The notes: generated by a model from the letters alone, not told the origin. DNA of 63,336 bases, filler included, from Coriobacteriales bacterium (GCA_031263105.1; 6 parts of 6 records of this genome joined end to end with filler, not necessarily neighbours in it); one strand, 5' to 3'. Counted from the whole stretch's first letter, positions 3,134-61,864 are shown. Translations and numbers: made by a program.

Positions 3134-3275
3134 CCACTGTCATTCCGAGCCTGCCGAGGAATCTTCGACCGCGCAAGCGGTCGACCGCAGGTCGAAGGGC
3201 CCCCTGACCTGCCGTTGGACACTGCGTGTCCAAAGATTCCCCGGCTTCGCTTCGCTGCGCTCGGAATGACAGTGG
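3134..3275. mobile_element. Palindromic miniature element (MITE/REP-like), copy 1
   Basis: CCACTGTCATTCCGAGC...GCTCGGAATGACAGTGG arms enclosing three internal hairpins. Confidence 0.85.
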
Positions 3276-3340
3276 AGGTTGGAGTGCAGGGTTGAAGCGA
3301 GCGACACTCCGAGCGCCTGCCTCCGAATGCTGCTAAGATA

Positions 3341-3385
3341 TTGACGTGAGGATTCTTTTGTCATATATTCATGTGACATTATGAC
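3341..3385 (+). promoter_or_regulatory. Putative sigma-70 promoter with overlapping TGTCA/TGACA motifs
   Basis: TTGACG(3341)-17 nt-TATATT(3364); TGTCA followed by two TGACA around the -10. Confidence 0.5.
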
Positions 3386-3433
3386 ACAGTGCTTTTTCGG
3401 GCTGCTCATCGAAGCGCGGTAAGGAGACTCGGT

Positions 3434-4138
3434 ATGCGACTGGCTGCTGGCGTTATCATAGCGATACTGATCGTTGCTGTCACAGGGCGCTTCATGAGGA
3501 AGGCGGCACCTGTCTTCTATCTGCTCGCCTTTGCTCTCGGTGTCTTCTTCATCTGCGGCACTTCGCTTGCGCTGCCCCCTTGGTTCAGAGAATATATCCT
3601 GTTCATCTTCCAGAGCAACAACCTCGCCATGGGTTTCTTCGCCATCGTCATGTTCGCCGGGGCTCTAGGAGAAAAGTCGTCACTGCGGAAGTTCCTGATG
3701 CCGATCCGTGCGGAGCTCTCCATCACCGCATCGATACTCTGCCTCGGCCATGTGGTCGTTTACGGACGTTCCTATCTTGCCCAGATCACGGGCTCCGCCC
3801 TCGCCATGCCCGGCGCGAGGCTGGTCGCCACCGTGGTGGCCTTCCTGCTTCTGGTGCTTTTGATCCCCTTGGCGCTGACATCGGTGCGGGCCGTCAAGGC
3901 ACGGATGAGACCGCAGACCTGGAAGAGCGTCCAGAAGCTCGCCTATGTGTTCTTCCTGCTCATATTCGTTCACATCTTCTTCTACCTCCTGCCGCCCGCG
4001 CTCGCAGGAAGCCTCGGCGCCGCAGTGAGCTTGGCGCTCTACAGTGCGCTTTTCCTTGTCTATCTGGTCCTTCGCATCCGCTTGGCCGCGCAGCACAGCG
4101 AGAGCTCCTTGACGGATACGGTCCAAGGAAGCGCCTGA
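3434..4138 (+). CDS. Ferric reductase-like (MsrQ/YedZ-type) heme-b membrane protein
   Basis: About six hydrophobic helices; PIRAELSI, LGHVVVY, PLALTS, WKSVQKLAY..LIFVH motifs; RBS AAGGAG at 3421. Confidence 0.8.
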   Translation: MRLAAGVIIAILIVAVTGRFMRKAAPVFYLLAFALGVFFICGTSLALPPWFREYILFIFQSNNLAMGFFAIVMFAGALGEKSSLRKFLMPIRAELSITASILCLGHVVVYGRSYLAQITGSALAMPGARLVATVVAFLLLVLLIPLALTSVRAVKARMRPQTWKSVQKLAYVFFLLIFVHIFFYLLPPALAGSLGAAVSLALYSALFLVYLVLRIRLAAQHSESSLTDTVQGSA

Positions 4139-4150
4139 GAGGTGCCCTGC

Positions 4151-4401
4151 GTTACACGTCACACCCCCACTGTCCGAACCCCACTGCCACCCCGAACCCC
4201 ACTGTCCGAGCCCCACTGTCCGAGCCCCACTGTCCGAGCCCCACTGTCCGAGTCCCACTGTCATTCCGAGCCTGTCGAGGAATCCTCGACCGCGCCAGCG
4301 GTCGACCGCAGGTCGAAGGGCCCTTCGACCTACCGTTGGACACTGCGTGTCCAAGGATTCCTCGGCGGGGCTCGGAATGACAGTGGGGTGTGACGTGTAA
4401 C
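4151..4401. mobile_element. Palindromic miniature element copy 2, complete, with 8-bp TSD
   Basis: Ends GTTACACGTCACACCCC / GGGGTGTGACGTGTAAC; TGCCCTGC at 4143-4150 and 4402-4409; tandem 14-bp CCCCACTGTCCGAG units in the left arm. Confidence 0.92.
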
Positions 4402-4466
4402 TGCCCTGCCCTTGCGGGTGTCGCGAGAGTGCCCGGTACTTGCTCTTCACAAGCTTGTCGTTTAGA

Positions 4467-4506
4467 ATATGGACTTACGAGTTAGTAACTTATGAGTCCA
4501 TATAAT
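4467..4506 (+). promoter_or_regulatory. Imperfect 37-bp palindrome overlapping a TATAAT -10 box
   Basis: ATATGGACTTACGAGTTA-G-TAACTTATGAGTCCATAT (15/18 complementary); TATAAT at 4501. Confidence 0.55.
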
Positions 4507-4521
4507 GGCAGGAGGATCCGG

Positions 4522-5958
4522 GTGTTCGTAGGAAGACAAAAGGAGATGGCTGCCCTCGGACGTCTCTACGCACGCGAGGACTTTCAGTTCGTCGTGATGT
4601 ATGGGCGCCGCCGGGTCGGCAAGACCACGCTTCTCAACGAATTCGTGAAAGACAAGCCCGCGTTGTTCTTCTCGGCACCTCAGCACGACGACGCAGGAGC
4701 GCTGCGTGTCTTTTCGGAGAGGCTGCACTCGTTCCTCGGACAGGGCGGCCTCTCTCCCTTTGCCACTTGGGCCGCTGCCTTCGAGCAATTGGCCAAGGCG
4801 GCGGAGGACAGGCGGTTCGTGCTGATAATCGACGAGTTCCCCTATCTGGCAAACGCCAACAGGTCGATACCCTCCCTACTGCAGAACGCCATCGACCGAC
4901 GCCTGAAAGACGGCAGGCTCTTCCTGGTGCTCTGTGGGTCGAGTCTGGGGTTCATGGAGCGTGGTGTGCTCAGCGCCAAAAGCCCTCTCTACGGTCGAGC
5001 GACGGCTCAGTTGCGCATCACGCCCTTTGACTTCGCGACGGCGGCAGACTTCTACCCGCAGTACCGCTTCGAGAGCAAGATGACGGCCTTCGGTGTGCTG
5101 GGCGGCATCCCTAAGTACCTCGAGACCTTCGTCGATACCGAACCCGTTGAGAACAACATCGTAGACCACATCCTGAACGACAGATCGTTGCTCTACGAGG
5201 AACCGATGAACTTCCTGCGCGAGGAGCTCCGTGAGCCGGCGACCTACAACGCCATCATCGAGGCGATAGCCGGCGGGGCGTCCAAGCTCAACGAGATAGC
5301 GACAAAGGCTGGCCTGCCTACGGACAAATGCGCCAAGTACCTGCGGACGCTCATCTCGCTCCATGTCGTCCAGCGGGAGATGCCGGTCATAGGACAGAAC
5401 AGGAAGAACGGCATCTACCGCATCTGTGATAACTTCTTCACCTTCTGGTACCGTTATGTCTTCGAGAATGCCGACATGGTCGAGCGCGGCGACGGCCAAG
5501 GCCTCTATGACCTGTTTGTGCGTCCGGATCTCGACAACTACATAGGCGCCACGGTGTTTGAAGGCATCTGTCAAGAGTATCTTTGGGGGCTCAACGCCCG
5601 TCGCAAGCTGCCCTTCGTCTTCTCAAGGGCGGGACGCTGGTGGGGCAACGACCCTCGGAGGCGAGAGCAGTCAGAGATCGATATAATCGCCTTCCACAAG
5701 CGACAGGCCTTGTTCTGTGAATGCAAGTGGAGAACGGAGAAGCTGGGGCTTGACGTGCTGGAGACGCTGCGGGAGCGAGCAGGCCTGTTTCCCGATTTTT
5801 CCGAGAAACACCTCTATCTGTTCTCTCGCTCCGGCTTCACCAAAGGGCTCAGAGATCACGTGTCGCAACTCGACAGCGCCGAGGTGACCTTGGTCGGACT
5901 TGAGGACCTGGAGAATGTGCTACTGGATACCGACGAGGGCAGCCAGCGTTCGACATAG
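4522..5958 (+). CDS. Archaeal-type P-loop ATPase with wHTH and C-terminal PD-(D/E)XK-like (DUF234) domain
   Basis: FVGRQKE start; Walker A GRRRVGKT; Walker B LIIDEFP; EIDIIA...CECKW; GTG start after AGGAGG. Confidence 0.88.
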   Translation: MFVGRQKEMAALGRLYAREDFQFVVMYGRRRVGKTTLLNEFVKDKPALFFSAPQHDDAGALRVFSERLHSFLGQGGLSPFATWAAAFEQLAKAAEDRRFVLIIDEFPYLANANRSIPSLLQNAIDRRLKDGRLFLVLCGSSLGFMERGVLSAKSPLYGRATAQLRITPFDFATAADFYPQYRFESKMTAFGVLGGIPKYLETFVDTEPVENNIVDHILNDRSLLYEEPMNFLREELREPATYNAIIEAIAGGASKLNEIATKAGLPTDKCAKYLRTLISLHVVQREMPVIGQNRKNGIYRICDNFFTFWYRYVFENADMVERGDGQGLYDLFVRPDLDNYIGATVFEGICQEYLWGLNARRKLPFVFSRAGRWWGNDPRRREQSEIDIIAFHKRQALFCECKWRTEKLGLDVLETLRERAGLFPDFSEKHLYLFSRSGFTKGLRDHVSQLDSAEVTLVGLEDLENVLLDTDEGSQRST

Positions 5959-6544: not shown

Positions 6545-6547
6545 ATG

Positions 6548-6916: not shown

Positions 6917-6930
6917 CCTTGGCGCCTCAA

Positions 6931-8828: not shown

Positions 8829-8836
8829 GATTCCTC

Positions 8837-11321: not shown

Positions 11322-11421
11322 NNNNNNNNNNNNNNNNNNNNNNNNNNNNNNNNNNNNNNNNNNNNTTAATTAATTAANNNNNNNNNNNNNNNNNNNNNNN
11401 NNNNNNNNNNNNNNNNNNNNN
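11322..11421. other. Artificial contig spacer
   Basis: N44-TTAATTAATTAA-N44. Confidence 0.99.
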
Positions 11422-11651: not shown

Positions 11652-12510
11652 GGTCCTGTCGTCAATAGATTCAAGCCCAGATGGCCAGGCAGCGTATCTG
11701 CACGGCAGCCAGAAACGACGACAGCCTCTTGGCGTAGCGGGTGGCTATGCCGCGCCAGCGCTTGAGTTCGCAGAAGGCGTTTTCCACCAGGTGGCGACAC
11801 CGGTAGAGTTCTTTATCGCAATCACGCTGCACCTTGCGGTTTCTCTTGGGCGGGATGACCGCCTCCATGCCCTGCGCCTTGGCAGCAGCAACAATGGCAT
11901 CGGTGTCATAACCCCTGTCGGCAAGCAGCGCCGAGGCATCCAGCCCCTCTATCAGCTTTTCTCCGTATGAGCAATCGGCCTCGGTGCCTGCTGTGATAAA
12001 CATTCTGACCGGCACGCCATGCGCATCCACGGCAAGATGTATCTTTGAGCTGGGCCCCCTTTTGTAAGGCCCATGCCCTCGTTGCCCCCGACAGCGCCCG
12101 TGGCGTGCTGGTGGACCTTGACGTGGCTGGCGTCTATCATGAGCCACTCCACGTCAGGCACATCCACAAGCAGCCCCAAAAGCCGTTTCCAGTCCCCTCC
12201 GTCCCGCCATCGGCAGAACCTGCGGTGGACGTTCTTCCAATCCCCGTAATCCGGCGGCAAATCTCGCCAGGGCGCCCCGGTGCGCAGTATCCAAAAGACG
12301 GCGTTTATGAATCTGCGATTGTCCTGTGCATTGCCGCCCCAGGTGCCCTTGCGTCCCTTCAGGTGCGGTTCGAGTTTTTCCCAGAGTTGGTCTGAGATGT
12401 CATGGCGACGGTAGTCTTCTGTCATGAGAGTCCCCTTTTGCTGCGGTTCTGGTGTATTCGTGGACTTTCTCATTGTAGCATACTATGCTATTACTATTGA
12501 CGACAGCACC
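11652..12510 (-). mobile_element. IS5-family insertion sequence (IS427-like), 859 bp
   Basis: TIRs GGTCCTGTCGTCAATAG / CTATTGACGACAGCACC (1 mismatch); TA on both sides; two overlapping transposase ORFs. Confidence 0.92.
11671..12425 (-). CDS. IS5-family transposase split into orfA/orfB by a probable programmed frameshift
   Basis: orfA has ILRTGAPWRDLP..YGDWKNVHRRF and MIDAS; orfB has KIHLAVDAHG, LLADRGYD, RHLVENAF..LK.WR.IATRYAK; AAAAGGGGG near 12055-12063 on the minus strand. Confidence 0.9.
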
Positions 12511-12927
12511 TAGGAAGCGTCGGACTGCTCGCATTCGGGGTCTTTTTTATAACTGCGGGAAGTGGCGACCTCCTCGTCATCTATGCCTTACGGAATGAGC
12601 GACGGGACGCTTTGGTCGAGGACCACCCTTCAGAAGTCGGTTATTTTGTCTATAGGCCTGTCGAAAGCCCTCATTGACCGAAGGGCGCCAAGTATATGCG
12701 CTATCGCGACGTGCGGGACCTGCGTTGGCTTTCGGTGCATCCGCAGTTTTACGGGAACTGATGGCGAAGAAGATAGCGATCTATCCGTACGCTGAGTAGA
12801 TGAGCAGAGCTGGCTTAAAATGCGTGAACTACATCCTCAATATCGCCAAATATGTTCATTTTACGTCCTTAGTTTCTCCATTTTAGGCTAAAATGTGGAC
12901 ATGATGTAGTGGACGAAAGGGTGTGCC

Positions 12928-14229
12928 ATGGAACGCCACGTAATGCAAAAACTTGTTGGCTGGAAGGGCAGCCGTCGTAAGAAACCGCTTATTATCAATG
13001 GGGCTCGCCAGGTTGGCAAAACGTGGTTACTCAAGGAATTCGGTGCGCGCCACTTTGACAACGTTGCCTATATCAATTTCGACAACAATGCAGCAATGCG
13101 CTTATTGTTTGACGAGGGCTATGACACCACCCGACTTCTAACAGGAATACAGGCAGAAGCCGAAGAGCGCATCATTGAGGGCGAGACGCTCATCATCTTT
13201 GATGAAATACAAGAGTGCCCCAAAGCGCTTACTTCACTTAAATATTTCAGCGAGAATACTCCGAGCCAGTTGATTGTTGCAGCCGGATCGCTCCTTGGTC
13301 TTGCTGTTCACCAGGGAACAGGCTATCCCGTTGGCAAGGTGACGACACTTGATCTGTTTCCTTTGAGCTTCCGTGAATTTCTTGATGCGACAGGCAACCA
13401 GTCACTGCGTGAGCTTATCGACTCCAATGACGTTTCTGTTATTTCCTCGTTTTCTGCAAAGCTCGTCCCGCTTCTGCGCCAGTATTATTTCACAGGCGGA
13501 ATGCCGGAAGTGGTAGCAGCATTTACCGAGAGCAACCTGGTAACGGATGCGCGTGAGGTTCAGAACCAAATTCTTTCGGACTATCGCCGTGACATCTCAA
13601 AGCATCTTACGGTCTCTGAGGCTGAACACACCCTTGCCACATGGGACTCAATACCTGCCCACCTGGGACAGGAGAACAGAAAATTTATATTCGGCCATAT
13701 CAAAGAGGGCTCTCGTGCGCGTGACTATCGTAGTGCTATCACATGGCTGGTCGAAGCCGGACTTGCTGTACGTGTGCGTCGCATTACAAAGCCGGGGATT
13801 CCCCTCGTAGCATATGCTGGCGAGTCATCGTTTAAGCTCTTTTTGCTTGATATTGGGCTACTCGGCGCGATGGCAGGACTCGACGCAAGCAGCGTAATAA
13901 GCGGAAACAGAATGTTCGCGGAATTTAAGGGTGCTTTAACAGAGCAATACGTCTGCCAACAGCTTGTATCTGATTGCGGCCTACAGCCTTTCTACTGGTC
14001 GGCCGAGAACTCTCGTGGTGAAATCGATTTTCTTGTCCAAAACGAAAGTCGAATCTACCCCATCGAAGTCAAAGCTGAAGAGAACTTGCGCTCAAAGAGC
14101 TTGCGCGCCTTCAACGAAAAATATAGGGGCATGAAGCCGCGTCGCTTCTCACTTTCAGGCTACCGAGACGAAGGATGGATGTGCAACGTGCCCCTCTTTG
14201 CGGTTGGTGACATAAAAAACTGGGAGTAA
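12928..14229 (+). CDS. AAA_14-type ATP-binding protein with C-terminal DUF4143 domain
   Basis: GARQVGKT; IIFDEIQ; TGGMPE; EIDF...PIEVK; lower GC than flanking genes. Confidence 0.9.
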   Translation: MERHVMQKLVGWKGSRRKKPLIINGARQVGKTWLLKEFGARHFDNVAYINFDNNAAMRLLFDEGYDTTRLLTGIQAEAEERIIEGETLIIFDEIQECPKALTSLKYFSENTPSQLIVAAGSLLGLAVHQGTGYPVGKVTTLDLFPLSFREFLDATGNQSLRELIDSNDVSVISSFSAKLVPLLRQYYFTGGMPEVVAAFTESNLVTDAREVQNQILSDYRRDISKHLTVSEAEHTLATWDSIPAHLGQENRKFIFGHIKEGSRARDYRSAITWLVEAGLAVRVRRITKPGIPLVAYAGESSFKLFLLDIGLLGAMAGLDASSVISGNRMFAEFKGALTEQYVCQQLVSDCGLQPFYWSAENSRGEIDFLVQNESRIYPIEVKAEENLRSKSLRAFNEKYRGMKPRRFSLSGYRDEGWMCNVPLFAVGDIKNWE

Positions 14230-15370: not shown

Positions 15371-15613
15371 GTTACAGTTCACGCCCCACTGTCATTCCGA
15401 GCGCAGCGCAGCGCAGCCGAGGAATCTTTGGACACGCTGTGTCCAACGGTAGGTCAGGGGCCCCGTCGACCTGCGGTCGACCGCTGGCGCGGTCGAGGAT
15501 TCCTCGACAGGCTCGGAATGACAGTGGGGGCTCGGAATGACAGTGGGGTGTCCGTGGAGACAGTGAGGGCTCGGAATGACAGTGGGGTGTCCGTGGAGGG
15601 TGTGGCCAGTAAC
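15371..15613. mobile_element. Palindromic miniature element copy 3 (mismatched ends, no TSD)
   Basis: GTTAC...GTAAC termini; full core; duplicated right-arm units. Confidence 0.88.
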
Positions 15614-18377: not shown

Positions 18378-20465
18378 ATGAGGAAAAGAAAGAGGGAGAA
18401 GGAACAGCTCCCGCAAACCGGGCTGGATGCGCCAAGGCCCGAAGCCGAACCCACGACGCCGCAGGCTGCAACGCCGCTTCCCGGACAGGGGATGTCGCGA
18501 AGGAGCTTCCTGCGCGGCGGCGGGATGGCCCTGGGCGCGGCGCTCGGCGGCGCGGCGCTGGCAACGGGCGGCATCGGGCTTGTCGGCTGTGCGCCGGGTG
18601 CGGAGACGGACGCGGGCCCCGGAGCAGAGGCCGCAGCCCCAGGGGCCACAGGCGCCACAGGGGCCGCGCAGGTCGCCGAGGGCTACGAGGTGTACGACAC
18701 CGACCTGCTCATCATAGGCTCCGGCTGGGGCGGCATGGCGGCCGCGTTCACGGCGTCCGAGAAGGGCGTCAACACCATCCTCGTCGACAAGGGCCCCTAC
18801 AACTCGAGCGGCGCGACGGGAATCTGCTTCGACATCTTGCAGGGATGGTCCTACCGCCCACAGGGCTTCCAGGTGCCGGCGAAGGCGAGCTCGCTGTTGA
18901 ACATGAAGCTCTACTACAATGCCGCACTGGAGGACGAGACGGTCTTTCACATGGACCAGTGGGCGGTCAACCATGGCGACGTCTACGTCGACCGCAACCC
19001 CGACGGGACCATCAGGAACTCGCATGTCATCGACCCCGTGAGCCACATCCTCACCGAGCATGCGTTCCCCCGGTACGCAAAGGCCCTGCTTGAGTCGAAG
19101 CGCTTCGTCTCCCTCTACGACAGGACCATGCTGACCGACCTCATCATACAGGACGGGCAGTGCCTCGGCGCGGTGGGACTCCATCTGCCCACGGGCGCCT
19201 TCAGGGTGTTCAGGGCAAAGGCGACCCTGCTGCACACGGGCGACTGCACCTGGGCATACGGGTGGAGGACCGTCTCCCCCGACACCGCGAACTCGCCCGA
19301 CAGCACGGCGGACCTGGAGATGGCCGCGTTCAGGAGAGGCGCCGCCATCGGCGATGCGGAATGGATGGACTACGACCTTTTGACCTGCTACCCGACGAGC
19401 ATCAACTGCGGTTACGCCGCAGGCCTCGGAGGGGACAGCTACAACGCCGGCCACATGATGGACAGCACGGGGGAGAACTTCCTCCTCAACACCGAGCATT
19501 CGGTGGAGGAGTACTACGCGAACCGCGGCCTCTTCAACCGGACGATCGCCCAACGGATCAAGGACGGCTACGGGTCGCCCAACGGGGGCATTTACGTCGA
19601 TTACACCACCTCTGAGGTGCGGGAGAGGGCGCGCTACTTCTATGCGAGGAACATCGACCTGTTCAAGGACGTGTTCGACATAGACGTGGACACCGAGCCG
19701 GTGGAATGCCTCATGGAGCTCCAGTCCCACGGCGGCGCACCCGTCGTGGACGAGAACACCATGAGCGTCGACTACATGGGGCTGTTCTGCGGGCGCGGCG
19801 CCGGCATCGGGGGCGAGGCATCCCCGGCGGGCACCCACATGAACACGGAGATAGGGGCCTTCGCAGGGCGCTCCGCCATCAAGTACCTGCAAAACGACTA
19901 CAGGGCACCGGAGAGCTTCGACTGGTCCGGGGTGGACGCCGAGCTCGAGCGGCTCAACGGCATCCTGACCCAACGGCCCTCCGAGGGGCTGAGGCCGGTC
20001 GCCGTCCGCCGCGCGATACAGAAGGTGGGCGGGCAGTGCCTCGGGATCATACGGGTGACCGAGGAGCTCGAGGAGGGCCTTGCGGAACTGCAACGCATCC
20101 GAGAGGAGGACCTGCCGAGACAGACGGTCACCGACACGAGCAGGGCCTTCAATATAGAGTGGCGGGAGGCCATCGAGAACCAGAACCTCCTCGACGACAC
20201 CGAGCTGACGATCAGGGCGACGCTCGAGCGCAAGGAGACCCGGGGCTACTACTTCCGCCCCGACTACCCCGAGCGCGATGACGACAACTGGTTCTGCCAG
20301 CTGGCGTGCCGCCTCGCCAACGGGGAGTTCGTCTTCGAGAAGAACGAGCTGCCCCAGGTGGATTGGGACGCGGTCGATTGGGACGCGGTCAAGCCGGACC
20401 TTTGGTTCTACAAGGATCTGGAAGAGCCCGTCAGATGGAGGTTGCCGGAAGGAGTCCAAGAATGA
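18378..20465 (+). CDS. Tat-exported flavoprotein, SdhA/FrdA/AprA superfamily
   Basis: SRRSFLR Tat motif; DLLIIGSGWGG; AKATLLHTG; RKETRGYYFRPDYPERDD; RBS GAAGGAG. Confidence 0.88.
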   Translation: MRKRKREKEQLPQTGLDAPRPEAEPTTPQAATPLPGQGMSRRSFLRGGGMALGAALGGAALATGGIGLVGCAPGAETDAGPGAEAAAPGATGATGAAQVAEGYEVYDTDLLIIGSGWGGMAAAFTASEKGVNTILVDKGPYNSSGATGICFDILQGWSYRPQGFQVPAKASSLLNMKLYYNAALEDETVFHMDQWAVNHGDVYVDRNPDGTIRNSHVIDPVSHILTEHAFPRYAKALLESKRFVSLYDRTMLTDLIIQDGQCLGAVGLHLPTGAFRVFRAKATLLHTGDCTWAYGWRTVSPDTANSPDSTADLEMAAFRRGAAIGDAEWMDYDLLTCYPTSINCGYAAGLGGDSYNAGHMMDSTGENFLLNTEHSVEEYYANRGLFNRTIAQRIKDGYGSPNGGIYVDYTTSEVRERARYFYARNIDLFKDVFDIDVDTEPVECLMELQSHGGAPVVDENTMSVDYMGLFCGRGAGIGGEASPAGTHMNTEIGAFAGRSAIKYLQNDYRAPESFDWSGVDAELERLNGILTQRPSEGLRPVAVRRAIQKVGGQCLGIIRVTEELEEGLAELQRIREEDLPRQTVTDTSRAFNIEWREAIENQNLLDDTELTIRATLERKETRGYYFRPDYPERDDDNWFCQLACRLANGEFVFEKNELPQVDWDAVDWDAVKPDLWFYKDLEEPVRWRLPEGVQE

Positions 20466-21307: not shown

Positions 21308-21495
21308 GTTACTGGCCCCTCCCCCCACTGCCATCCCGAGCCCCCACTGCCATCCCGGCCCCCACTGCCATCCCGAGCCCCCACTGCCATCCCGAGCCCC
21401 CACTGTCATCCCGAGCCCCCACTGTCATCCCGAGCCCCCACTGTCATCCCGAGCCCCCACTGTCATCCCGAGCCCCCACTGTCATCCCGAGCCTG
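21308..21495. mobile_element. Palindromic element copy 4 (left end plus tandem 19-bp arm units, cut by contig end)
   Basis: GTTAC then repeated CCCCCACTG(C/T)CATCCCGAG. Confidence 0.85.
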
Positions 21496-21595
21496 NNNNN
21501 NNNNNNNNNNNNNNNNNNNNNNNNNNNNNNNNNNNNNNNTTAATTAATTAANNNNNNNNNNNNNNNNNNNNNNNNNNNNNNNNNNNNNNNNNNNN
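21496..21595. other. Artificial contig spacer
   Basis: N44-TTAATTAATTAA-N44. Confidence 0.99.
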
Positions 21596-21654: not shown

Positions 21655-21816
21655 GTTACTGTTCTCCCCCCACTGTCATCCCGAGCCTGTCGAGGGATCC
21701 TCGACCGCGTAAGCGGTCGACTGCGACCGGAAGGTGCCTCGACTCATGGTCGGCTGCTCCGCAGCCGAGGATCCCTCGACAGGCTCGGGATGACAGTGGG
21801 GGGCGTGAACAGTCAT
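21655..21816. mobile_element. Palindromic element copy 5
   Basis: GTTACTGTTC...CCACTGTCATCCCGAGCCTGTCGAGGGATCC...GGATCCCTCGACAGGCTCGGGATGACAGTGG...GAACAGTCAT. Confidence 0.85.
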
Positions 21817-25382: not shown

Positions 25383-25579
25383 GTTACAAGTCACACCACC
25401 CACTGTCATTCTCCGAGCGCAGCGGAGGTCCTTCGCTGCGCTCAGGATAAACTCCGCCGAGGACTCTTTGGACGCATCGGTGCCCGGTTGGCTGCTTCGC
25501 AGCCAAAGATTCCTCGGCTGCGGCGCGGCCACCGGCCGCGCCTCCGCTCGGAATGACAGTGGGGGTGTGAACGGTAGTT
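25383..25579. mobile_element. Palindromic element copy 6 (variant core)
   Basis: GTTAC start; CCACTGTCATT...GGAATGACAGTGG; partial flanking match AACCAAAC / GGCCAAAC. Confidence 0.8.
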
Positions 25580-30552: not shown

Positions 30553-30834
30553 GTCACTGGCCACACCCCCACTGTCATTCCGAGCCCCACTGCCGCCCCG
30601 AGCCCCACTGCCGCCCCGGCCCCCACTGCCGTCCCGGCCCCCACTGCCATCCCGCGCCTGCCGTGGGATCCTCGGCCGCGCCAGCGGCCGACCGCAGGCC
30701 GAAGGGCCCCCCGACCTGCCGTTGGACACTGCGTGTCCAAGGATTCCTCGGCGGAGCTCGGAATGACAGTGGGGCTCGGGGCGGCAGTGGGGGCTCGGGG
30801 CGGCAGTGGGAGGCCGGGGCGGCAGTGGGAGGCC
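30553..30834. mobile_element. Palindromic element copy 7 with tandem 18-bp units in both arms, cut by contig end
   Basis: GTCACTGGCCACACCCCC start; three-hairpin core; CCCCACTGCCGCCCCGAG-type repeats. Confidence 0.85.
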
Positions 30835-30934
30835 NNNNNNNNNNNNNNNNNNNNNNNNNNNNNNNNNNNNNNNNNNNNTTAATTAATTAANNNNNNNNNN
30901 NNNNNNNNNNNNNNNNNNNNNNNNNNNNNNNNNN
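30835..30934. other. Artificial contig spacer
   Basis: N44-TTAATTAATTAA-N44. Confidence 0.99.
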
Positions 30935-41429: not shown

Positions 41430-42511
41430 GACTCACCTCCGTTGTTCCAAGCCCGCTCGCGAGGTTGCTGCTCACGCCCACTGTCATTCCGAGCGGAGGG
41501 GGCGAAGCCCCGCAGCCGAGGAATCTTTGGCTGCGAAGCAGCCGACTGCGGGCAGAGGCGCCCCCCGACCGCAGTTGATCGCTTCGCGATCAAAGATTCC
41601 TCGACAGGCTCGGAATGACAGTGGGTGCAACTAGTGACCTCGCGAGAGATGGGCTCTCGTTCCCTCTCGCTCACGCTCCGTTGTAGCGCGAGCCACATGC
41701 CAAAGACGGTGCAGGCTCCGCTGGACGCCCCGACCGCAGCCAGGCGGCGCAGGGAGCAGAGCAGGTTCTCGCTGCTGAGCCCGCAGACGACGGCCAGGAC
41801 GCGCTGGAGCGTCTCGTGGTAGTCGGCCTCCAGGGCATTCTGCAACAGCTGCCTGGAGAGCGTCGTCGTCCGTGCGAGGCCGCCCGCAACTGCCGCATGC
41901 ATCGCCTGCGTCCAAGCAGGGTCGTGCCCCACATGGGCGTCCATGGCAAGGTAGCCGAGCAGGACGTCGTCGCCGGCGGGCGTCAGCCCGGGGCCGAGCC
42001 CGATCAGGCGGGTCGCCGTCCGAGGCGTAAGGGAGCTGTTGCCATGCGGTGCCCCGGCCAAGCTCCGCGCCGCATCGGGAAGCGCCCTCTGCACCGCCTC
42101 GGGGATCTCCAGGCGGCACATCGCATCCGCAAAGGCCGCAAGGCTTCGGGGGGTCGGCGTGGCACGCGCGTGGGGCGGCAGCGGGCCCTCCCAAAGCGGC
42201 ACGCCTTCAAGGCCGACCCTCGTCCCGTCCGCCGCCGCGCCCCTCGCAGCGCCCCTCGCCGCACCTATCACGAGCGCCGTGCGGGCGAACCGCAGGCCGT
42301 CTCCCACAGCCACGCGCGGCAACCTGTTCAGGCACAGGAAACGGGACGAGCCCCCGGCCTGCGGCAACGCCAAGGCCAGGAGCTCGTCTCTCACAGTCAG
42401 ATTGACGACCTTCTCGTGAACGCTCAGCACGCGTGCCGAGCCCTGCTGCAGGCAGCAGCGCGCGAAGCGCGCTCCCACGCTCAAGGCTCGGATGTCGTGT
42501 CGGGCGGACAT
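41417..42511 (-). CDS. DUF2877 protein (YlbF/AllH/YahE-like) with a 61-aa element-derived insert
   Basis: LIGLGPGLTPAGDDVLLG, TTTLSRQLL, VGASSG; ORF stays open through the element. Confidence 0.88.
   Translation of the reverse strand: MSARHDIRALSVGARFARCCLQQGSARVLSVHEKVVNLTVRDELLALALPQAGGSSRFLCLNRLPRVAVGDGLRFARTALVIGAARGAARGAAADGTRVGLEGVPLWEGPLPPHARATPTPRSLAAFADAMCRLEIPEAVQRALPDAARSLAGAPHGNSSLTPRTATRLIGLGPGLTPAGDDVLLGYLAMDAHVGHDPAWTQAMHAAVAGGLARTTTLSRQLLQNALEADYHETLQRVLAVVCGLSSENLLCSLRRLAAVGASSGACTVFGMWLALQRSVSEREREPISREVTSCTHCHSEPVEESLIAKRSTAVGGRLCPQSAASQPKIPRLRGFAPSARNDSGREQQPRERAWNNGGESCIR
41464..41638. mobile_element. Palindromic element copy 9, in frame inside DUF2877, with 8-bp TSD
   Basis: CTCGCGAG at 41456-41463 and 41639-41646; 175+8=183 nt=61 codons. 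Confidence 0.92.
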
Positions 42512-49158: not shown

Positions 49159-49288
49159 GCGCGGGTTACCGTACGCACCCCCACTGTCGGGCGCGGGTTA
49201 CCGTACGCACCCCCACTGTCGGGCGCGGGTTACCGTACGCACCCCCACTGTCGGGCGCGGGTTACCGTACGCACCCCCACTGTCGGGC
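49159..49288. repeat. Four tandem 32-bp units containing the element left terminus
   Basis: GCGCGGGTTACCGTACGCACCCCCACTGTCGG x4 at the contig end. Confidence 0.88.
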
Positions 49289-49388
49289 NNNNNNNNNNNN
49301 NNNNNNNNNNNNNNNNNNNNNNNNNNNNNNNNTTAATTAATTAANNNNNNNNNNNNNNNNNNNNNNNNNNNNNNNNNNNNNNNNNNNN
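49289..49388. other. Artificial contig spacer
   Basis: N44-TTAATTAATTAA-N44. Confidence 0.99.
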
Positions 49389-49508: not shown

Positions 49509-49810
49509 GTTACTTGAAGAGTTATACAGTTATGTAAGAGAACATTACTTGAAGAGTTATGCAGTTACATAAGAGAACGTTATTTTAGCAGTTATAAAGT
49601 GTCTAAGAGAACGTTACGTCGGAAGTTATTAAGCCATATGAGGGAATGTTACTTGAAGAGTTATACAGCTACGTAAGTGAACGTTGTTTTAGCAGTTATA
49701 AAGCAGAACGTTACTTCAAGAGTTATACAGTTACATAAGAGAACGTTGTTTCAGCAGTTATAAAGTGTCTAAAGAGAACGTTGCGTTAACAGTTATAAAG
49801 TGGTCTGAGA
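49509..49810. repeat. Degenerate minisatellite, about 34-35-bp unit
   Basis: GTTACTTGAAGAGTTATACAGTTACATAAGAGAAC and GTTGTTTTAGCAGTTATAAAGTGTCTAAGAGAAC variants. Confidence 0.8.
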
Positions 49811-55948: not shown

Positions 55949-57373
55949 ATGGACGCCTCGGGTGTGACAGGGGGACGTATAATCTGTCACATTGCTGACA
56001 GAGGGGAATCAGGCGACAAAGAAGCGAAGGGCAATGAGACAGATTATACGTCCCCCTGTCACACACATCGCGAGAACCACGCAGGCGAGCCGGTGCATCA
56101 CCGTCACGCCCACGCGCCTGCGTCCCGCCACCCGCAGGGACACCACCTTCTCCAAGTCGAAGGCCTGAGCGTCGGCTTCACGATGTACGATCCCGACGAG
56201 CCGCGCTTCTTCCGGGCGAGGCGCATTGCCGTGCCGGTCATACACGACCTGCACGTCAGCGTCCATGCAGGCGAGATAGTAGCCGTCGTGGGGGCGTCGG
56301 GGTCGGGCAAGACCCTGCTCGCCGACGCGATCATGGGGATGTTCGAACCCAACGCGACGGTGCAGGGCCGCATCTGGTTCGACGGCATCGAGCAGGACGC
56401 CTCCTCGCTGGCCCGCCTGCGCGGCAACGGCATCTCCCTGGTGCCGCAGAGCGTGAACTACCTCGACCCCCTCATGAGGGTCGGACGACAGGTCAAAGGC
56501 GACGCACGAATGCGCCGGAAGACGCGTGCGAGGAGGCGGCCGTCCTTCTCCCCAAGCTCGCATGCCGAGGCAGAGCCGTCCTTGTCCCCAGATTCGCACG
56601 CCAAGGCAGAGCCGCCCCTGCCTCTTGGCTCCCGCAGGCGTTCCGCACGGCTTGCGGAGCTGTTCGAGCGGTACGGCCTGCCTCCCGAGGTCGCCGACCG
56701 GTATCCCCATGAGCTCTCCGGCGGCATGGCCCGTCGCGTGCTGCTCTGTTGCGCGCTCATGGACGATCCGCAGGTCATAATCGCCGACGAGCCGACCCCC
56801 GGCCTCGACCTCGAGCTGGCGCAGCGAGCGCTGGAGGACCTCCGCCGCTTTGCCGACGAGGGCGGAGGCGTCCTGCTCATCACGCACGACATCGAGCTGG
56901 CGCTACGGGTCGCCGACCGCGTGGCGGTCTTCAAGGACGGCACCGTCGTCGAGGAGACCGCAGTCGCGGACTTCGCTTCCCCCCACACCCTGCGACACGC
57001 GTTCAGCAAGGCCCTCTGGCACGCCCTCCCCGAGCATGACTTCTCCTGTCGCCGTCACCAGAAGTCGTACCGTCCCCACTGTCACCGTCCCCACTGTGCT
57101 CGCTTGAGGCCCGCGACCTCCACTTCTCCTATCCGGGGCAGCCTCCGCTCTTCACGGGCCTCGACCTTGCGATGGGCCCACAGGAACGCGTGGCGCTCTT
57201 TGCTCCCTCGGGCGCAGGGAAGTCCACGCTCTGCAAGCTGCTCGCCGGCTACCTTGAGCCGCAGGACGGCAGCGTCCTCGTCGATGGCACGCCGTTGCCG
57301 CGCCAGGGCATCTGCCCGGTGCAGCTCGTCTGGCAGCACCCCGAGCAGGCCCTTGACACCCATATGCGTATGA
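55949..57373 (+). CDS. ABC ATP-binding protein 1 (NikD/DppD-like); domain ends near 57045 and the ORF runs on over the next gene
   Basis: GASGSGKT, YPHELSGGMARR, IIADEPT, LITHD; His-rich N-terminus. Confidence 0.85.
   Translation: MDASGVTGGRIICHIADRGESGDKEAKGNETDYTSPCHTHRENHAGEPVHHRHAHAPASRHPQGHHLLQVEGLSVGFTMYDPDEPRFFRARRIAVPVIHDLHVSVHAGEIVAVVGASGSGKTLLADAIMGMFEPNATVQGRIWFDGIEQDASSLARLRGNGISLVPQSVNYLDPLMRVGRQVKGDARMRRKTRARRRPSFSPSSHAEAEPSLSPDSHAKAEPPLPLGSRRRSARLAELFERYGLPPEVADRYPHELSGGMARRVLLCCALMDDPQVIIADEPTPGLDLELAQRALEDLRRFADEGGGVLLITHDIELALRVADRVAVFKDGTVVEETAVADFASPHTLRHAFSKALWHALPEHDFSCRRHQKSYRPHCHRPHCARLRPATSTSPIRGSLRSSRASTLRWAHRNAWRSLLPRAQGSPRSASCSPATLSRRTAASSSMARRCRARASARCSSSGSTPSRPLTPICV
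55962..56064. repeat. 27-bp perfect inverted repeat within the 5' end of the ATPase ORF
   Basis: GTGTGACAGGGGGACGTATAATCTGTC ... GACAGATTATACGTCCCCCTGTCACAC. Confidence 0.9.
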
Positions 57374-57714: not shown

Positions 57715-57836
57715 GCTTGCTTAGGAATTGTAAAGTAATAAACTGTACGATAGCCTGTGGAACAGATTGCCCCGGGTCAAGGCGGGAACAGGCGGCCCTA
57801 CTTGTGGCAATGCCGCCTGTTCCCAACGCAGAGCTG

Positions 57837-57998
57837 GTTACTGTGCACACCCCCACTGTCATTCCGAGCCTGCCGAGGAATCTTTGGACGCGCAGTGTCC
57901 AACGGCAGGTCAGGGGGCCCTTCGACCTGCGGTCGACCGCTGGCGCGGCCGAGGGTCCCTCGACAGGCTCGGGATGAGAGTGGGGTGTGCACAGTAAC
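57837..57998. mobile_element. Palindromic element copy 11, complete 162 bp, with 8-bp TSD
   Basis: GTTACTGTGCACACCCC / GGGGTGTGCACAGTAAC; CAGAGCTG at 57829-57836 and 57999-58006. Confidence 0.93.
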
Positions 57999-58053
57999 CA
58001 GAGCTGGGGCAATCTGACCGCAGGATACGTACAAGATATTACTTTACAGTTCC

Positions 58054-58668
58054 TTAGTAGCTCAACGCGCGGTTGCCCAGCGGGGCGCGTATGGCTGCGA
58101 GGCCTGCATGGCTGATGGGCCTGTCCTTGCCGACGTAGGGGTCGTTGTAGTAGAAGTTCTGCTCGTCGAAGCCTGTGATGGCGACGCAGTGCAGGCCCGA
58201 GCCGTACCGGATCCAGCAGGCGATGGCCTTGCCCGCCCGCAGGTAGGCCTTGAAGGTGTCGAGCGATGCCCCCGTGAGGTCCACCGCCGAACCTGCATAG
58301 GAGCGAACCGTACCGAGCAGCGCGGGCGGGTAGATGGTCACGCCGCTCCAGGTGCGGGGATTGCCCACGAAGCCCAGGTCGGGGTTGCTGCCGTGATAGG
58401 GCATGGCACGCACCACGTCCTCGATGCTCACGTCGTAACCGGCATGCGACAACATCATGGCGACCGAGGCAGCCTCACAGCCAGTGGGATAGCCAGGGAG
58501 CTGTAGGAACAACGGCACGTCGAGCCTGACCTGCGACGCCTCGTAGGCCGTCGCCCTGAAGCTGAACTTCTGCGCGTTGCGGTCCCTGTTGGTCGTGACG
58601 GCCACGGCGTTGGCGCCGGCCCTGCCCGTGCCCGTGCCCGCCAGCCAGGCCCCGGACTTGGACTGGAG
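58054..58668 (-). CDS. C39-like cysteine peptidase domain (3' part of a larger gene)
   Basis: LDVPLFLQLP.YPTGCEAAS (Cys), LHCVAITG (His), YYNDP (Asp); truncated by contig end. Confidence 0.85.
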   Translation of the reverse strand, partial: LQSKSGAWLAGTGTGRAGANAVAVTTNRDRNAQKFSFRATAYEASQVRLDVPLFLQLPGYPTGCEAASVAMMLSHAGYDVSIEDVVRAMPYHGSNPDLGFVGNPRTWSGVTIYPPALLGTVRSYAGSAVDLTGASLDTFKAYLRAGKAIACWIRYGSGLHCVAITGFDEQNFYYNDPYVGKDRPISHAGLAAIRAPLGNRALSY

Positions 58669-58768
58669 NNNNNNNNNNNNNNNNNNNNNNNNNNNNNNNN
58701 NNNNNNNNNNNNTTAATTAATTAANNNNNNNNNNNNNNNNNNNNNNNNNNNNNNNNNNNNNNNNNNNN
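58669..58768. other. Artificial contig spacer
   Basis: N44-TTAATTAATTAA-N44. Confidence 0.99.
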
Positions 58769-58975
58769 GCCGCCCCGGCCCCCACTGCCGCCCCGGCCCC
58801 CACTGCCGCCCCGGCCCCCACTGTCATTCCGAGCCTGTCGAGGAATCTTCGACCGCGCCAGCGGTCGACTGCGGGTCGAAGGATCCCCCGACCTGCAGTT
58901 GGTCGCTTCGCGACCAAAGATTCCTCGGCTTCGCTTCGCTGCGCTCGGAATGACAGTGGAGGTGTGACCTGTAGC
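58769..58975. mobile_element. Palindromic element copy 12, overlapping the rpiB 3' end
   Basis: Tandem arm units, three-hairpin core, right end GGTGTGACCTGTAGC. Confidence 0.88.
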
Positions 58976-59477
58976 CGACAACGCCGCTCGCCGCAGCGCC
59001 GCAGCGCTGGTGCTCCAGGGCATGTATCAGGGCGACGCGGTCGGCATGGCGGCCCCCGCCGAAGGTCGCGTCGAGGAAGCCCGCAAGGATCGCCTTGTTG
59101 GTCGCGACATCGACGAAGCGGCCCGAGAGGGTGATGACGTTCGCGTCGTTGTGCTCCCGGGCAAGGGCGGCGAAGGCGGGGCTGGTGACGTTCGCGGCGC
59201 GGATGCCGTCTGTCTTGTTGGCGGCAATCGCCATGCCGATGCCCGTCCCGCAGACGAGGACGCCGAGGTCGGCCGCGCCGCCTGCCACCTCTTCGGCGAC
59301 AAGAGCGGCGAAGCGGGGGTAGTCGACCCGCTCGTCGGTCTCAGGCCCGAGGTCGTGCACGTCGAGGCCCTGGCCGACAAGCCAGGCGGCCAGCTGCTGC
59401 TTCTGCTCGAAGCCGGCATGGTCGCTCGCTATCGCGATGCGCGTCCGCGTGTCGACTCGCGCCTGCGTGTCACTCAT
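58824..59477 (-). CDS. rpiB: Ribose-5-phosphate isomerase B with element-derived C-terminal extension
   Basis: IAIASDHAG, VDYP, LVCGTGIGMAIAANK, AREHNDAN, FGGGRHADRV. Confidence 0.95.
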   Translation of the reverse strand: MSDTQARVDTRTRIAIASDHAGFEQKQQLAAWLVGQGLDVHDLGPETDERVDYPRFAALVAEEVAGGAADLGVLVCGTGIGMAIAANKTDGIRAANVTSPAFAALAREHNDANVITLSGRFVDVATNKAILAGFLDATFGGGRHADRVALIHALEHQRCGAAASGVVGYRSHLHCHSERSEAKPRNLWSRSDQLQVGGSFDPQSTAGAVEDSSTGSE

Positions 59478-59483
59478 GACCTG

Positions 59484-59751
59484 TCCTCACGTCCTTTCCG
59501 CCCGATTCGCTCGTGCCCCCGCCCGTAGGGGACGGCGGGCCAGAGGGGGAAGCGGCCTTCTACCTGTACGCTCGTGCTCCCGCCCGTAGGGGACGGCGTC
59601 CTCGACGTCCCGCACCGCCGCCGCACGGCACGAGGGCCCTCACGTCCCTTCCGCCCGCTCGTGCCCCCGCCCGTAGGGGACGGCGTCCTCGACGTCCCGC
59701 ACCGCCGCCGCACGGCACGAGGGCCCTCACGTCCCTTCCGCCCGCTCGTGC
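59484..59751. repeat. 87-bp tandem duplication containing GTAG-type REP hairpins
   Basis: CGCTCGTG at 59569, 59656, 59743; GTAGGGGACGGCGTCCTCGACGTCCC in each full unit. Confidence 0.85.
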
Positions 59752-60362
59752 GAACAGTGTAGCAGAAGGGCGCCGCTGCGCAGGATGCGGGGCTCCGCTC
59801 CCAGGCAGGAGACGATGGTCGAGGGCTGGTCGCCCGGTGTAGGGCCGCCGTCCAGCATCAGGGCGAGACGCTCGGCGAGCACCGGGTCGAAGCCGCTGCG
59901 CTCCAAGGCCGCCTCGCCGCCCTGGAGGTTCGCGCTCGTGGTGGCCAGCGGCGCTTGGAGCGCACGGACGAGCGCACGCGGGACGGGATGCGCACTCGCA
60001 CGCAGGGCCAGGCTGCCGTCGCGTGCGACGAAGCGGGGCGGGGCGGCGCAAGAGGCGCGCACGACGAGGGTGAGCGCGCCCGGCCAGTGCGCGCGCGCCA
60101 GCTCGAAGGCGTAGGCCGGCACCTTCTCCCCATACTCCTCCAGAGCGCCGATGCCGTCGACGAGCCAGGGGACGGCCTTGGCGGGGTCGCGCTGCTTGAG
60201 CGCGAAGAGCGCGTCGGGCGAGCCCTGCGGAAGAACCGCCACGCCCAGGCCGTAGACGGTGTCCGTGGGAAAGGCGACGGGGACGCCCCGGCGTGCGAGC
60301 GCAGCCGCCCGCGCTATCGCGTCGGGACGGGGGCATTGAGTGTCGATGTCCAGAATCTCCAT
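59727..60362 (-). CDS. tsaC: L-threonylcarbamoyladenylate synthase (YrdC/Sua5 domain)
   Basis: VAFPTDTVYGL, LKQRDPAK, WPGALTLV, TTSAN, PSTIV. Confidence 0.93.
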   Translation of the reverse strand: MEILDIDTQCPRPDAIARAAALARRGVPVAFPTDTVYGLGVAVLPQGSPDALFALKQRDPAKAVPWLVDGIGALEEYGEKVPAYAFELARAHWPGALTLVVRASCAAPPRFVARDGSLALRASAHPVPRALVRALQAPLATTSANLQGGEAALERSGFDPVLAERLALMLDGGPTPGDQPSTIVSCLGAEPRILRSGALLLHCSHERAEGT

Positions 60363-60379
60363 AAGGGTATAATAGCATT
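60363..60379. promoter_or_regulatory. 17-bp intergenic region with overlapping divergent -10 boxes (probably leaderless)
   Basis: TATAAT 6 nt before the + ATG; TATTAT 6 nt before the - ATG; no SD on the + strand. Confidence 0.65.
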
Positions 60380-61546
60380 ATGAAATCACACTTCCACAGT
60401 TACCTTTTGACCTTCGGGCATATCTGCACCGACATAAGCCAAGGGGCGCTTCCCGCCCTGCTCCCCTTCCTTGTCCTGCAGCACGGCTTCAGCTATGCAG
60501 CGGCGGCGGCGCTCGTCCTTGCGTCGAGCATCGTGTCGACGGTCATACAGCCGCTGTTCGGCTGGCTGGGCGACCGCCTCGACCGCCCGTGGTTCATGGG
60601 CGTGGGCGTCCTCATGGCGGGCTGCGGCATCGCGCTCATCGGCTTCGTCGACAGCTACTGGCTCATGTTCGCGTCGGCCTCCTTCTGCGGCGTCGGCGTC
60701 GCGCTCTTCCACCCGGAGGGCGGCAAGCTCGCCAACGTCGTCGCCGGCAGCGAGAAGGGCGCGGGCATTGCCAACTTCTCCGTCGGCGGGAACATCGGCT
60801 TCGCGCTCGGGCCGGCGCTCGCCGCCTTCGCGCTCGCCGCCTTTGGCATGCGGGGGACGGCGCTCTTCCTCGTGCCCGCCGTCCTTGCGGCCGTCGTGCT
60901 GCTGAGCCAGACGAGGGCCTACACCGCCTTCGGTGCCGAGGAGGCCGCACGTCGGCAGGCCGCAGGGCAGGGCCAGGAGCGCGACGACTGGCCGGGCTTC
61001 CTGAAGCTGACCTCGGTGAACACCCTGCGCTCCATCGTCGGAACCGGGCTTTTGGTGTTCGTGCCCCTGTACTGGGTGGCGGTTCTCGGACAGCCCCAGG
61101 AGCTGGCCGCGCTTATGCTCACCTTCTACTCGGCCACCGGCGCCGTCGCGACCTTTTTCGGAGGGCGCATCGCCGACAAGGTCGGCTTCAAGCGGATGAT
61201 CCTGTTGAGCTTCTGCATAAGCGCACCTTTGCTCGGCCTGTTCGTGCTCAATTCGAATCCCCTCGTCGCGACCGTGCTCATCCTCCTCGTCTCCCTCTCC
61301 CACGGCATGGCCTACAGCCCACTCATCGCCCTCGGGCAGTCCTACCTCCCCAACCGCCTGGGCCTCGCCTCGGGGATCTCGCTGGGCGTGGTCGTGAGCG
61401 TCGGCGGCATGGCCTCCCCCGCCATCGGCCTCGTGGGCGACAACTTCGGCCTGACGCTCTCCATGGCCCTCATCTGCGCAGTGTCATTCCTCGCCGCCGC
61501 CCTCTCCCTCCTCGTCCTCCGCCACCGCAGGCCCCCCGAAGACTGA
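60380..61546 (+). CDS. MFS transporter (Fsr/fosmidomycin-resistance-like)
   Basis: GHICTD, QPLFGWLGDR, ALFHPEG, FSVGGNIGFALGP, GGRIADKVG; about 12 TM helices. Confidence 0.9.
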   Translation: MKSHFHSYLLTFGHICTDISQGALPALLPFLVLQHGFSYAAAAALVLASSIVSTVIQPLFGWLGDRLDRPWFMGVGVLMAGCGIALIGFVDSYWLMFASASFCGVGVALFHPEGGKLANVVAGSEKGAGIANFSVGGNIGFALGPALAAFALAAFGMRGTALFLVPAVLAAVVLLSQTRAYTAFGAEEAARRQAAGQGQERDDWPGFLKLTSVNTLRSIVGTGLLVFVPLYWVAVLGQPQELAALMLTFYSATGAVATFFGGRIADKVGFKRMILLSFCISAPLLGLFVLNSNPLVATVLILLVSLSHGMAYSPLIALGQSYLPNRLGLASGISLGVVVSVGGMASPAIGLVGDNFGLTLSMALICAVSFLAAALSLLVLRHRRPPED

Positions 61547-61619
61547 GCGGAGGCAAGGCGAACCGAGGAAGCGGGTTGCGCTGTCGGAGTTACTGGCAGA
61601 CCGCCGGATGAGCGAGAGC

Positions 61620-61864
61620 GTTACTGTTCAGACCTCATTGTCATTCCGAACCCCACTGTCATCCCGAGCCCCACTGTCATTCCGAGCCCCACTGTCATTC
61701 CGAGCCCCACTGTCATTCCGAGCCCCACTGTCATTCCGAGCCCCACTGTCATTCCGAGCCTGCCGAGGAATCTTTGGCTGCGGAGCAGCCAACTGACCCT
61801 GTTGGGCGCTGATGCGCCCAAAGATTCCTCGGCTTCGCTCGGAATGACAGTGGGGCGTGAACAC
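61620..61864. mobile_element. Palindromic element copy 13 with about seven tandem 18-bp arm units
   Basis: GTTACTGTTCA start; CCCCACTGTCATTCCGAG repeats; two-hairpin core; GACAGTGGGGCGTGAAC end. Confidence 0.88.

Follow-up and report, generated by a model that had tools for sequence, protein, structure and literature searches.

The stretch of DNA analysed here (the window; 63,336 nt) originates from a Coriobacteriales bacterium (GCA_031263105.1) belonging to a termite-gut Coriobacteriia population, and it carries a dispersed family of short, palindromic elements with GTTAC-type tips that is interpreted below as a family of miniature transposable elements with inverted repeats (MITEs). The window consists of six contigs (C10, C11, C13, C14, C15 and C16) joined by N/TTAATTAATTAA spacers at 11322-11421, 21496-21595, 30835-30934, 49289-49388 and 58669-58768. 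The complete assembly comprises 250 contigs (2.9 Mb, 64.5% G+C), is rated 86% complete with 6.5% contamination, and its smallest contig measures at least 2.5 kb. A search for the arm of the family, CCACTGTCATTCCGAGC, allowing up to two mismatches, yielded 34 matches in the window compared to 0.01 expected (100 shuffles), and these matches group into 11 loci. A twelfth locus at 49166-49288 is formed by tandem tip units. The multi-copy family described in an earlier note on this DNA is therefore recovered, with 12 loci counted instead of the approximately 13 copies that the note had given. The copies and the features directly associated with them are listed below, with the strand where one is assigned.

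3134-3275: core-only copy with both arms, without GTTAC tips and without a duplication
4143-4150: left target-site duplication TGCCCTGC
4151-4401: complete 251-bp element of the ACGT tip subfamily, with the ends GTTACACGTCAC...GTGACGTGTAAC and 14-nt tandem units at 4165-4262
4402-4409: right target-site duplication TGCCCTGC
4440-4468, plus strand: predicted host promoter beside the element at 4151-4401 (TTGCTC, 17 nt, TAGAAT)
15372-15613: two-tipped element with arm units repeated on the right, no duplication
21308-21495: left tip followed by nine tandem 19-nt arm units, up to the contig end
21656-21813: copy with the degenerate right tip GTCAT, no duplication
25480-25577: truncated copy, right half only
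30553-30834: copy with 18-19-nt arrays on both sides, up to the contig end
41456-41646: element at 41464-41638 with the degenerate tips GTTGC...GTGAC, between two copies of the duplication CTCGCGAG (41456-41463 and 41639-41646)
49166-49288, plus strand: four identical tandem 32-nt units, each opening with the tip GTTACCGTACGCACCCCCACTGTC, at a contig end
57829-58006: canonical 162-bp element at 57837-57998 with the duplication CAGAGCTG at 57829/57999, within a copy of a second repeat family
58769-58975: copy from the contig start with an 18-nt array and the right tip GTAGC
61621-61864: left tip, 6.8 tandem 18-nt units and core, with the right tip truncated

A clear 8-bp duplication is present in three of the 12 loci, exactly where the earlier note had placed them (TGCCCTGC at 4143/4402, CTCGCGAG at 41456/41639 and CAGAGCTG at 57829/57999), and none is readable in the other nine. 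Four of these nine meet a contig end or start (21308-21495, 30553-30834, 49166-49288 and 58769-58975), three are truncated or have degenerate or absent tips (3134-3275, 25480-25577 and 61621-61864), and two are tipped but have unmatched flanks (15372-15613 and 21656-21813). A copy or array of the family adjoins four of the five contig junctions in the window, which suggests that repeats of this family break the assembly.

The element at 41464-41638 is located at or in the 3' end of an AllH gene and is flanked by two co-directional members of a ureide/oxamate cluster. The AllH-domain open reading frame (ORF; 41417-42511, minus strand) runs through the element and has its stop at 41417. At the start of contig C15, an A+T-rich tandem array (49509-49797) is composed of about 8.5 units of 35 nt (GTTACTTGAAGAGTTATACAGCTATATAAGAGAAC), each opening with GTTAC.

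Across the whole assembly, 1218 arm matches were found in 483 loci on 214 of the 250 contigs, corresponding to a density of about one locus per 6 kb. Plus and minus arms pair up 301 times, and the modal core between them is 132 bp. With the 162-bp copy from the window as query, BLAST retrieved 380 non-overlapping loci that occupy a minimum of 45 kb (1.6% of the assembly). The canonical whole unit measures 162-164 bp, and an alignment of 193 copies gives a consensus of 163 nt with GTTACTGTTCACACCCCCACTGTCATTCCGAGC at both ends. The entire unit is a near-perfect fold-back palindrome forming one long hairpin, with an RNA fold of -121 kcal/mol (z = -13.4) and a DNA fold with z = -10.3 for the 162-nt unit. 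The inner hairpins vary by compensatory pairs, as seen for one pair at which 51 AT-to-GC double changes are found versus 4 single changes. Furthermore, units of 14-19 nt are repeated in tandem between tip and core in many copies. They are composed of the inner part of the end and the start of the arm, and contigs often break in these arrays. A repeat near the contig ends of C96 and C114, first read as the end of an insertion sequence (IS), turned out to be one more tandem variant of this family.

The family thus displays the characteristics by which MITEs are recognized: it is short, non-coding and present in many copies, and it has terminal inverted repeats, a fixed-length duplication and, as described below, empty sites with a single 8-mer. 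Correia/NEMIS, RUP and Nezha are bacterial MITEs, and like these the elements are small, non-coding, mostly intergenic and of high copy number. A search of the whole window against Rfam at gathering thresholds gave no match. When compared to 40 relatives of the same family and order, the 162-bp unit produced short and weak matches in three genomes only (best E 4.5e-8 over 62 nt). As the MITE is lacking there, no orthologous empty sites could be obtained from these 40 relatives.

The duplications were tabulated genome-wide for 252 complete loci, of which 123 have GTTAC-like tips on both sides. Among these 123 two-tipped copies the flanking 8-mers are identical in 44, differ by one mismatch in 17 and by two mismatches in 9, compared to 0.4, 0.2 and 0.8, respectively, expected from shuffled flank pairing. 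The exact repeats are confined to register 8, with registers 4-7 and 9-12 giving 0-2. No position of the duplicated 8-mer exceeds 0.23 bit, so that it lacks a consensus, and no target consensus was found in or around it. Empty sites were identified for the window copy at 57837-57998, which is inserted in the second repeat family. Two uninterrupted paralogues of its target, C145:18915-19078 (reverse strand) and C232:6-125, contain a single CAGAGCTG each and read ...CCCAACG CAGAGCTG GGGCAATCTGACC..., and this is the only clean empty-site case among the 77 elements tested. The genome-wide duplications, together with empty sites that hold one 8-mer and not both, confirm the proposal of the earlier note that the family moves as a discrete unit and inserts by a staggered cut.

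The second repeat family is about 150 bp long; its inverted ends are rich in A+T (GGAACTGTAAAGTAATAAA...TTTACAGTTCC) and its structured middle is rich in G+C. At least five copies are present, namely window 57720-58057, the two paralogues on C145 and C232, C162:6-119 and C230:26181-26280, and the window copy had no match in Rfam. In addition, the only sequencing run found to contain this DNA, which is stored as contigs and may be the source sample, was compared to C24:1-20000 and showed a single joint from 18819 to 19014 with 26 other letters in between. This joint resembles a diverged empty allele with a single AGAAACAG; its shorter side fits 24 letters only, and it is not counted as evidence.

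The tips of the element indicate which enzyme could be responsible for its movement. A scan of 185,579 genomes (one per species) for GTTACNGTTCACACCCCCAC detected 15 loci in 10 assemblies, labelled Lachnospiraceae, Ruminiclostridium, Roseburia, Erysipelotrichaceae, Desulfitobacteriaceae, Desulfovibrionaceae, Geobacteraceae, Coriobacteriaceae and Atopobiaceae. Some of the 15 loci, such as L011, L012 and L019, are MITEs with other interiors and 8-bp duplications, and in five an IS66-family transposase gene adjoins the tip. Two elements, L017 (2231 bp) and L023 (2137 bp), have the tip at both ends, and their ORFs match PF03050 (5.9e-17 and 1.4e-22, respectively). A profile of the tip-sharing transposases retrieved 80 metagenome loci, and in 52 of these two candidate tips bracket the gene, some of them being false internal matches. 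Exact 8-bp duplications flank 12 of the 52, and one more has a duplication with one mismatch; these elements are about 2.25 kb long and have GTTAC(T/A)GTTCA tips. The element L029 (2250 bp) is flanked by the duplication TACCCGGG and contains a single 557-aa ORF (PF03050, 6.5e-22) without tnpA/tnpB, the only other sense-strand ORF upstream being 57 aa long with no Pfam match. A tblastn search with the L029 transposase against 72,556 plasmids gave no match at 1e-20. Taken together, elements of full length (2.1-2.3 kb) from other gut and anaerobe taxa share the GTTACTGTTCA tips and the 8-bp duplications with the family studied here.

The earlier note had no enzyme to offer for the movement of the family; elements with the same tips are now seen to encode an IS66-family DDE transposase. 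Its suggestion to look for a transposase gene bounded by the same termini succeeded in other taxa and failed in this assembly, in which no tip pair 0.5-6 kb apart with a duplication surrounds a gene and only two long non-coding elements were retrieved, on C21 (541 bp) and C71 (557 bp). An IS5-like element at 11671-12473, which had been considered an improbable driver, is not the driver, because the tips of the MITE belong to another family. This IS5/IS4-type element is located at the start of contig C11 and encodes DUF4096 and DDE_Tnp_1 in two overlapping frames.

Among the closest known systems is ISDge4 of Deinococcus geothermalis, a member of the ISBst12 group of the IS66 family. According to the sections of PMC12898284 used here, its single ORF lies in an element that has the ends GTAACTGCTCAGCA/GTGACTACTCAGCA, makes 8-bp direct repeats and transposes by copy-and-paste; the transposition mechanism of IS66 is termed insufficiently characterized. 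The MITE shares with this group the 8-bp direct repeats and the ends GT(A/T)ACTG(C/T)TCA, in which 9 of 14 bases are common to the ISDge4 end as printed in those sections, and its full-length relatives, found in other taxa only, have one DDE_Tnp_IS66 ORF and no tnpA/tnpB. Tips and layout place the element among the MITEs of the IS66 family, in an ISBst12-like clade. It differs from the ISBst12 group in being a gene-less 162-bp fold-back with REP-like inner hairpins and tandem 14-19-nt subterminal arrays. Furthermore, the same sections of PMC12898284 report no promoter-distance targeting for the group.

The earlier note had likened the family to repetitive extragenic palindromic (REP) sequences, namely CGTC/TGTC-tagged families. 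In such a REP/REPIN-like family, the units would be moved as single-stranded hairpins by a Y1 transposase, either a RAYT or an IS200-like enzyme, which would suit the strongly palindromic nature of the whole unit and its inner hairpins. Four Y1_Tnp genes are indeed present in the genome, two of them inside family copies. However, Y1 transposition leaves no duplicated target, which is at odds with the 8-bp duplications and the empty sites with one 8-mer found here, and the tips match the ends of DDE-type ISs. The two Y1 genes inside family copies are part of IS200/IS605-type insertions that have their own ends and are not flanked by inverted REPs. These elements, at C197:3558-4222 (gene 3635-4093) and C168 at about 12600-13300, have a 152-aa ORF and are 72% identical, and both are inserted directly after CACTGTCATT in one arm of a MITE copy, the rest of which follows. 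These two Y1 genes are guests in the MITE and not its engine, and movement by a Y1 enzyme is considered extremely unlikely. What the family has in common with REP/REPIN sequences are G+C-rich palindromic hairpins that are scattered intergenically and preserved by compensatory changes; DDE-type tips, 8-bp duplications and the nested IS200/IS605-type nature of the Y1 genes separate it from REP/REPIN-RAYT systems. As a separate observation, the MITE arm appears as if it supplied the target of the two IS200/IS605-type elements.

The position of the elements relative to promoters was analysed using 458 tips with 130 nt of outward flank. The promoters are sequence predictions, for which a -10-like hexamer was defined as matching at least five of six positions of TATAAT, with A2 and T6 required. 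Outward-pointing hexamers occur 11, 24, 27 and 11 times at offsets 60, 61, 62 and 63, respectively, compared to about 1.3 at each other offset, and inward-pointing hexamers occur 3, 1, 5 and 6 times at these offsets. After dropping the flanks that hold another copy, the signal at 60-63 nt is present in 72 of 431 tips, with about 5 expected; the background for these clean flanks is 1.22 per offset, with a maximum of 5. The 72 signal-bearing flanks are mutually unrelated (median identity 27%). When measured from the target, the -10 start is found 52-55 nt past the 8-mer in 24 of 71 duplication-bearing sites. A -35 element (at least 4/6 matches) could be called in 32 flanks, and in 27 of these it starts 38-40 nt from the tip. 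Two window copies illustrate this arrangement. The promoter at 4440-4468 has its -35 start 38 nt and its -10 start 61 nt from the tip of the element at 4151-4401, with an ATPase gene (4492-5958) downstream, and an outward -10-like TATACT is present 62 nt from the left tip of the element at 15372-15613.

The same arrangement is seen in other taxa, where almost all elements are full-length. In 116 distinct flanks, the hexamers occur 9, 14 and 15 times at offsets 61, 62 and 63, many of these flanks containing a clean TTGACA-17-TATAAT promoter, and the peak is present in 10 of the 11 distinct insertions of full-length elements whose duplications are intact. The arrangement is also oriented. In the elements of other taxa, 33 of 45 promoters (33:12) face the end that lies 3' of the transposase gene, versus 66 of 116 for all flanks, and in the MITE the promoter faces one particular end in 29 of 39 cases (29:10). 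A long ORF follows the predicted promoters in 49 of 71 cases versus 228 of 349, a comparison that is not informative in DNA of 64% G+C.

Such a distance peak could in principle be left behind by purifying selection acting on random insertions, and the flanks, with 56% G+C compared to 64.5% for the genome, would fit survival in intergenic DNA. However, selection cannot yield a peak 3-4 nt wide, nor does it agree with the orientation bias or with the identical offset in hosts as different as an actinobacterium of 64% G+C and other taxa with A+T-rich contigs. Selection as the sole source of the peak is therefore regarded as very unlikely. The narrowness of the peak and the offset shared by G+C-rich and A+T-rich hosts point to targeting by the transposition machinery rather than selection, as far as can be judged from predicted promoters.

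Fixed-distance insertion upstream of promoters has a precedent. The portion of Guerillot et al. 2014 available for comparison (PMC3942029) describes that elements of the TnGBS, ISLre2 and ISKra4 groups insert 13-17 bp upstream of the -35 box, presents this property as unique among prokaryotic transposases, and proposes a contact with the polymerase initiation complex. This raises the alternative that the MITE is driven by another transposase that duplicates 8-9 bp, the likeliest being a Mutator-like enzyme of the ISLre2/ISKra4 type. Promoter targeting at a fixed distance combined with an orientation bias is a hallmark of these groups in the same portion of PMC3942029, and no IS66 gene was found in this assembly. 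However, the MITE has its outermost 13-20 bases in common, without a difference, with elements that encode an IS66-family DDE transposase as their only long ORF, and these full-length elements show the same distance peak. Moreover, the junction lies 38-40 nt from the -35 element, compared to 13-17 nt in the Mutator-like families. In Pfam searches of the assembly, the IS256, ISL3 and IS1595 transposase domains were not found; models for ISLre2 and ISKra4 were not part of these searches. A driver from another transposase family, of which a Mutator-like one would be the likeliest, is thus very unlikely. The resemblance to TnGBS, ISLre2 and ISKra4, as these are portrayed in that portion of PMC3942029, is one of working and not of membership: insertion at a fixed distance upstream of sigma-A promoters, an orientation bias and no need for a cut-site consensus are shared, whereas the enzyme is an IS66 DDE and not a Mutator-like transposase and the spacing is about 23-25 bp longer.

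The reading that is preferred here, to which a probability of roughly 80% is assigned, is that the family is a high-copy, non-autonomous MITE with IS66-clade ends that is mobilized in trans and inserted at a fixed distance from promoters. The outer approximately 20 bp, GTTACTGTTCACACCCCCAC, are the ends of a clade of single-gene IS66-family ISs with the layout of the ISBst12 group. A transposase of this clade, supplied in trans, would bind the two tips and integrate the element by 8-bp staggered cuts, probably in a copy-and-paste manner by analogy with ISDge4. The 8-mer itself would not be read by the transposase. Instead, the element would be set at a fixed distance upstream of sigma-70/sigma-A promoters, with 38-40 nt from the tip to the -35 element and 61-63 nt to the -10 element, so that the duplicated 8 bp would span approximately -73 to -66 relative to the start site. 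The ruler for this distance may be the promoter bound by RNA polymerase. On balance, it is somewhat more likely than not that the single-gene IS66-family clade and its MITE offspring use the promoter as a molecular ruler, most likely through the upstream edge of the DNA held by RNA polymerase, and insert 38-40 bp upstream of the -35 element. Promoter-targeted transposition would then have arisen in bacteria a second time, independently, in a clade distributed over gut and sediment members of the Actinobacteria, Firmicutes and Desulfobacterota. Full-text searches of the openly readable literature, to which the original ISBst12 and 'Route 66' articles do not belong, yielded no account of IS66-family elements that target promoters.

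Several observations weigh against this interpretation. First, the flanking 8-mers differ at three or more positions in 53 of the 123 two-tipped copies, for which tip mis-calls in arrays, decay or recombination between copies could be responsible. Second, under the strict -10 definition the peak comprises about 1/6 of the tips and about 1/3 of the elements, the remaining tips having weaker promoters, old insertions or other targets, and the promoters are predicted from sequence only. Third, the L017 and L023 transposases score 151-160 bits with the NCBIfam IS66 model NF033517, below its curated cut-off of 180, so that the tip-sharing transposases are divergent members and also differ in this respect from the ISBst12 group. 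The assignment to the latter group is based on layout and on likeness to printed ISBst12-group ends rather than on a tree. Finally, an IS66-type transposase was not found in this assembly by Pfam search, by tblastn with two transposases or by profile search, and the profile search gave weak matches to the transposase clade in only 2 of 300 sampled genomes of the class. Hence, current activity of the MITE family is unproven. MITEs are also expected to share their ends with an autonomous IS of the same genome; in this 86%-complete assembly no such IS was found, and the partners with the same tips are in other taxa. The missing gene is not a proven absence, since the assembly is incomplete and holds no contig below 2.5 kb. 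The partner transposase is either unassembled, because of repeats and the lack of contigs shorter than 2.5 kb, or it has been lost or was only transiently present.

The tips themselves show a further regularity. The earlier note had pointed out that the 7-mers following GTTAC vary between copies yet stay complementary within a copy, and both variants, ACGTCAC/GTGACGT and TGTGCAC/GTGCACA, are present in the window. In 75 duplication-bearing copies, changes in both arms at tip positions 6-9 occur in 20, 13, 20 and 6 copies, respectively, while positions 1-5 and 10-14 show both-arm changes in 0-3 copies, most changes there being one-sided. Both tetranucleotides at positions 6-9 could be called in 35 of the 193 aligned copies, and the arms agree in 23 of these 35 versus 8.3 expected (maximum 16 in 2000 shuffles), with six different non-consensus variants being concordant. 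The core identity is 94.3% within ACGT/ACGT copies versus 86.6% between groups, by which measure the ACGT variant is a young subfamily. Agreement between the two arms at position 6 is also seen in full-length elements, for example in L029 and L083. The complementarity of the 7-mers is in part due to subfamily descent, and the rest of the arm agreement needs either arm-to-arm correction in the fold-back or selection for symmetry.

Compared to the bacterial MITEs mentioned above, with which the family also shares terminal inverted repeats and fixed-length duplications, it stands out by its very high density, its palindromic nature over the whole length, its expandable subterminal arrays and its promoter-distance targeting. 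Unrelated to the MITE family, a 34-nt inverted repeat (97% complementary, 35-nt spacer; GTGTGACAGGGGGACGTATAATCTGTCACATTGC) is located at 55962-56064, between two ABC-transporter genes.

A MITE with 8-bp duplications is by itself ordinary. What goes beyond this is, first, that its driver can be placed in a little-studied branch of the IS66 family and, second, that the MITE and its autonomous relatives have the sharply fixed promoter distance in common. Insertion at a promoter distance in bacteria was previously reported only for the Mutator-like TnGBS, ISLre2 and ISKra4 elements, as far as the cited portion of PMC3942029 extends. If the interpretation given here is true, a second enzyme family with a different spacing would make it possible to test directly by what means promoters are sensed by a transposase. 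The tolerance of a small genome for one insertion per 6 kb would also be explained, because insertion at this distance would leave the core promoter and the genes intact at the approximately 480 loci. Finally, the elements would allow promoters to be marked from sequence alone in uncultured gut bacteria, with about one third of the copies in this genome having sites that would be real promoters.

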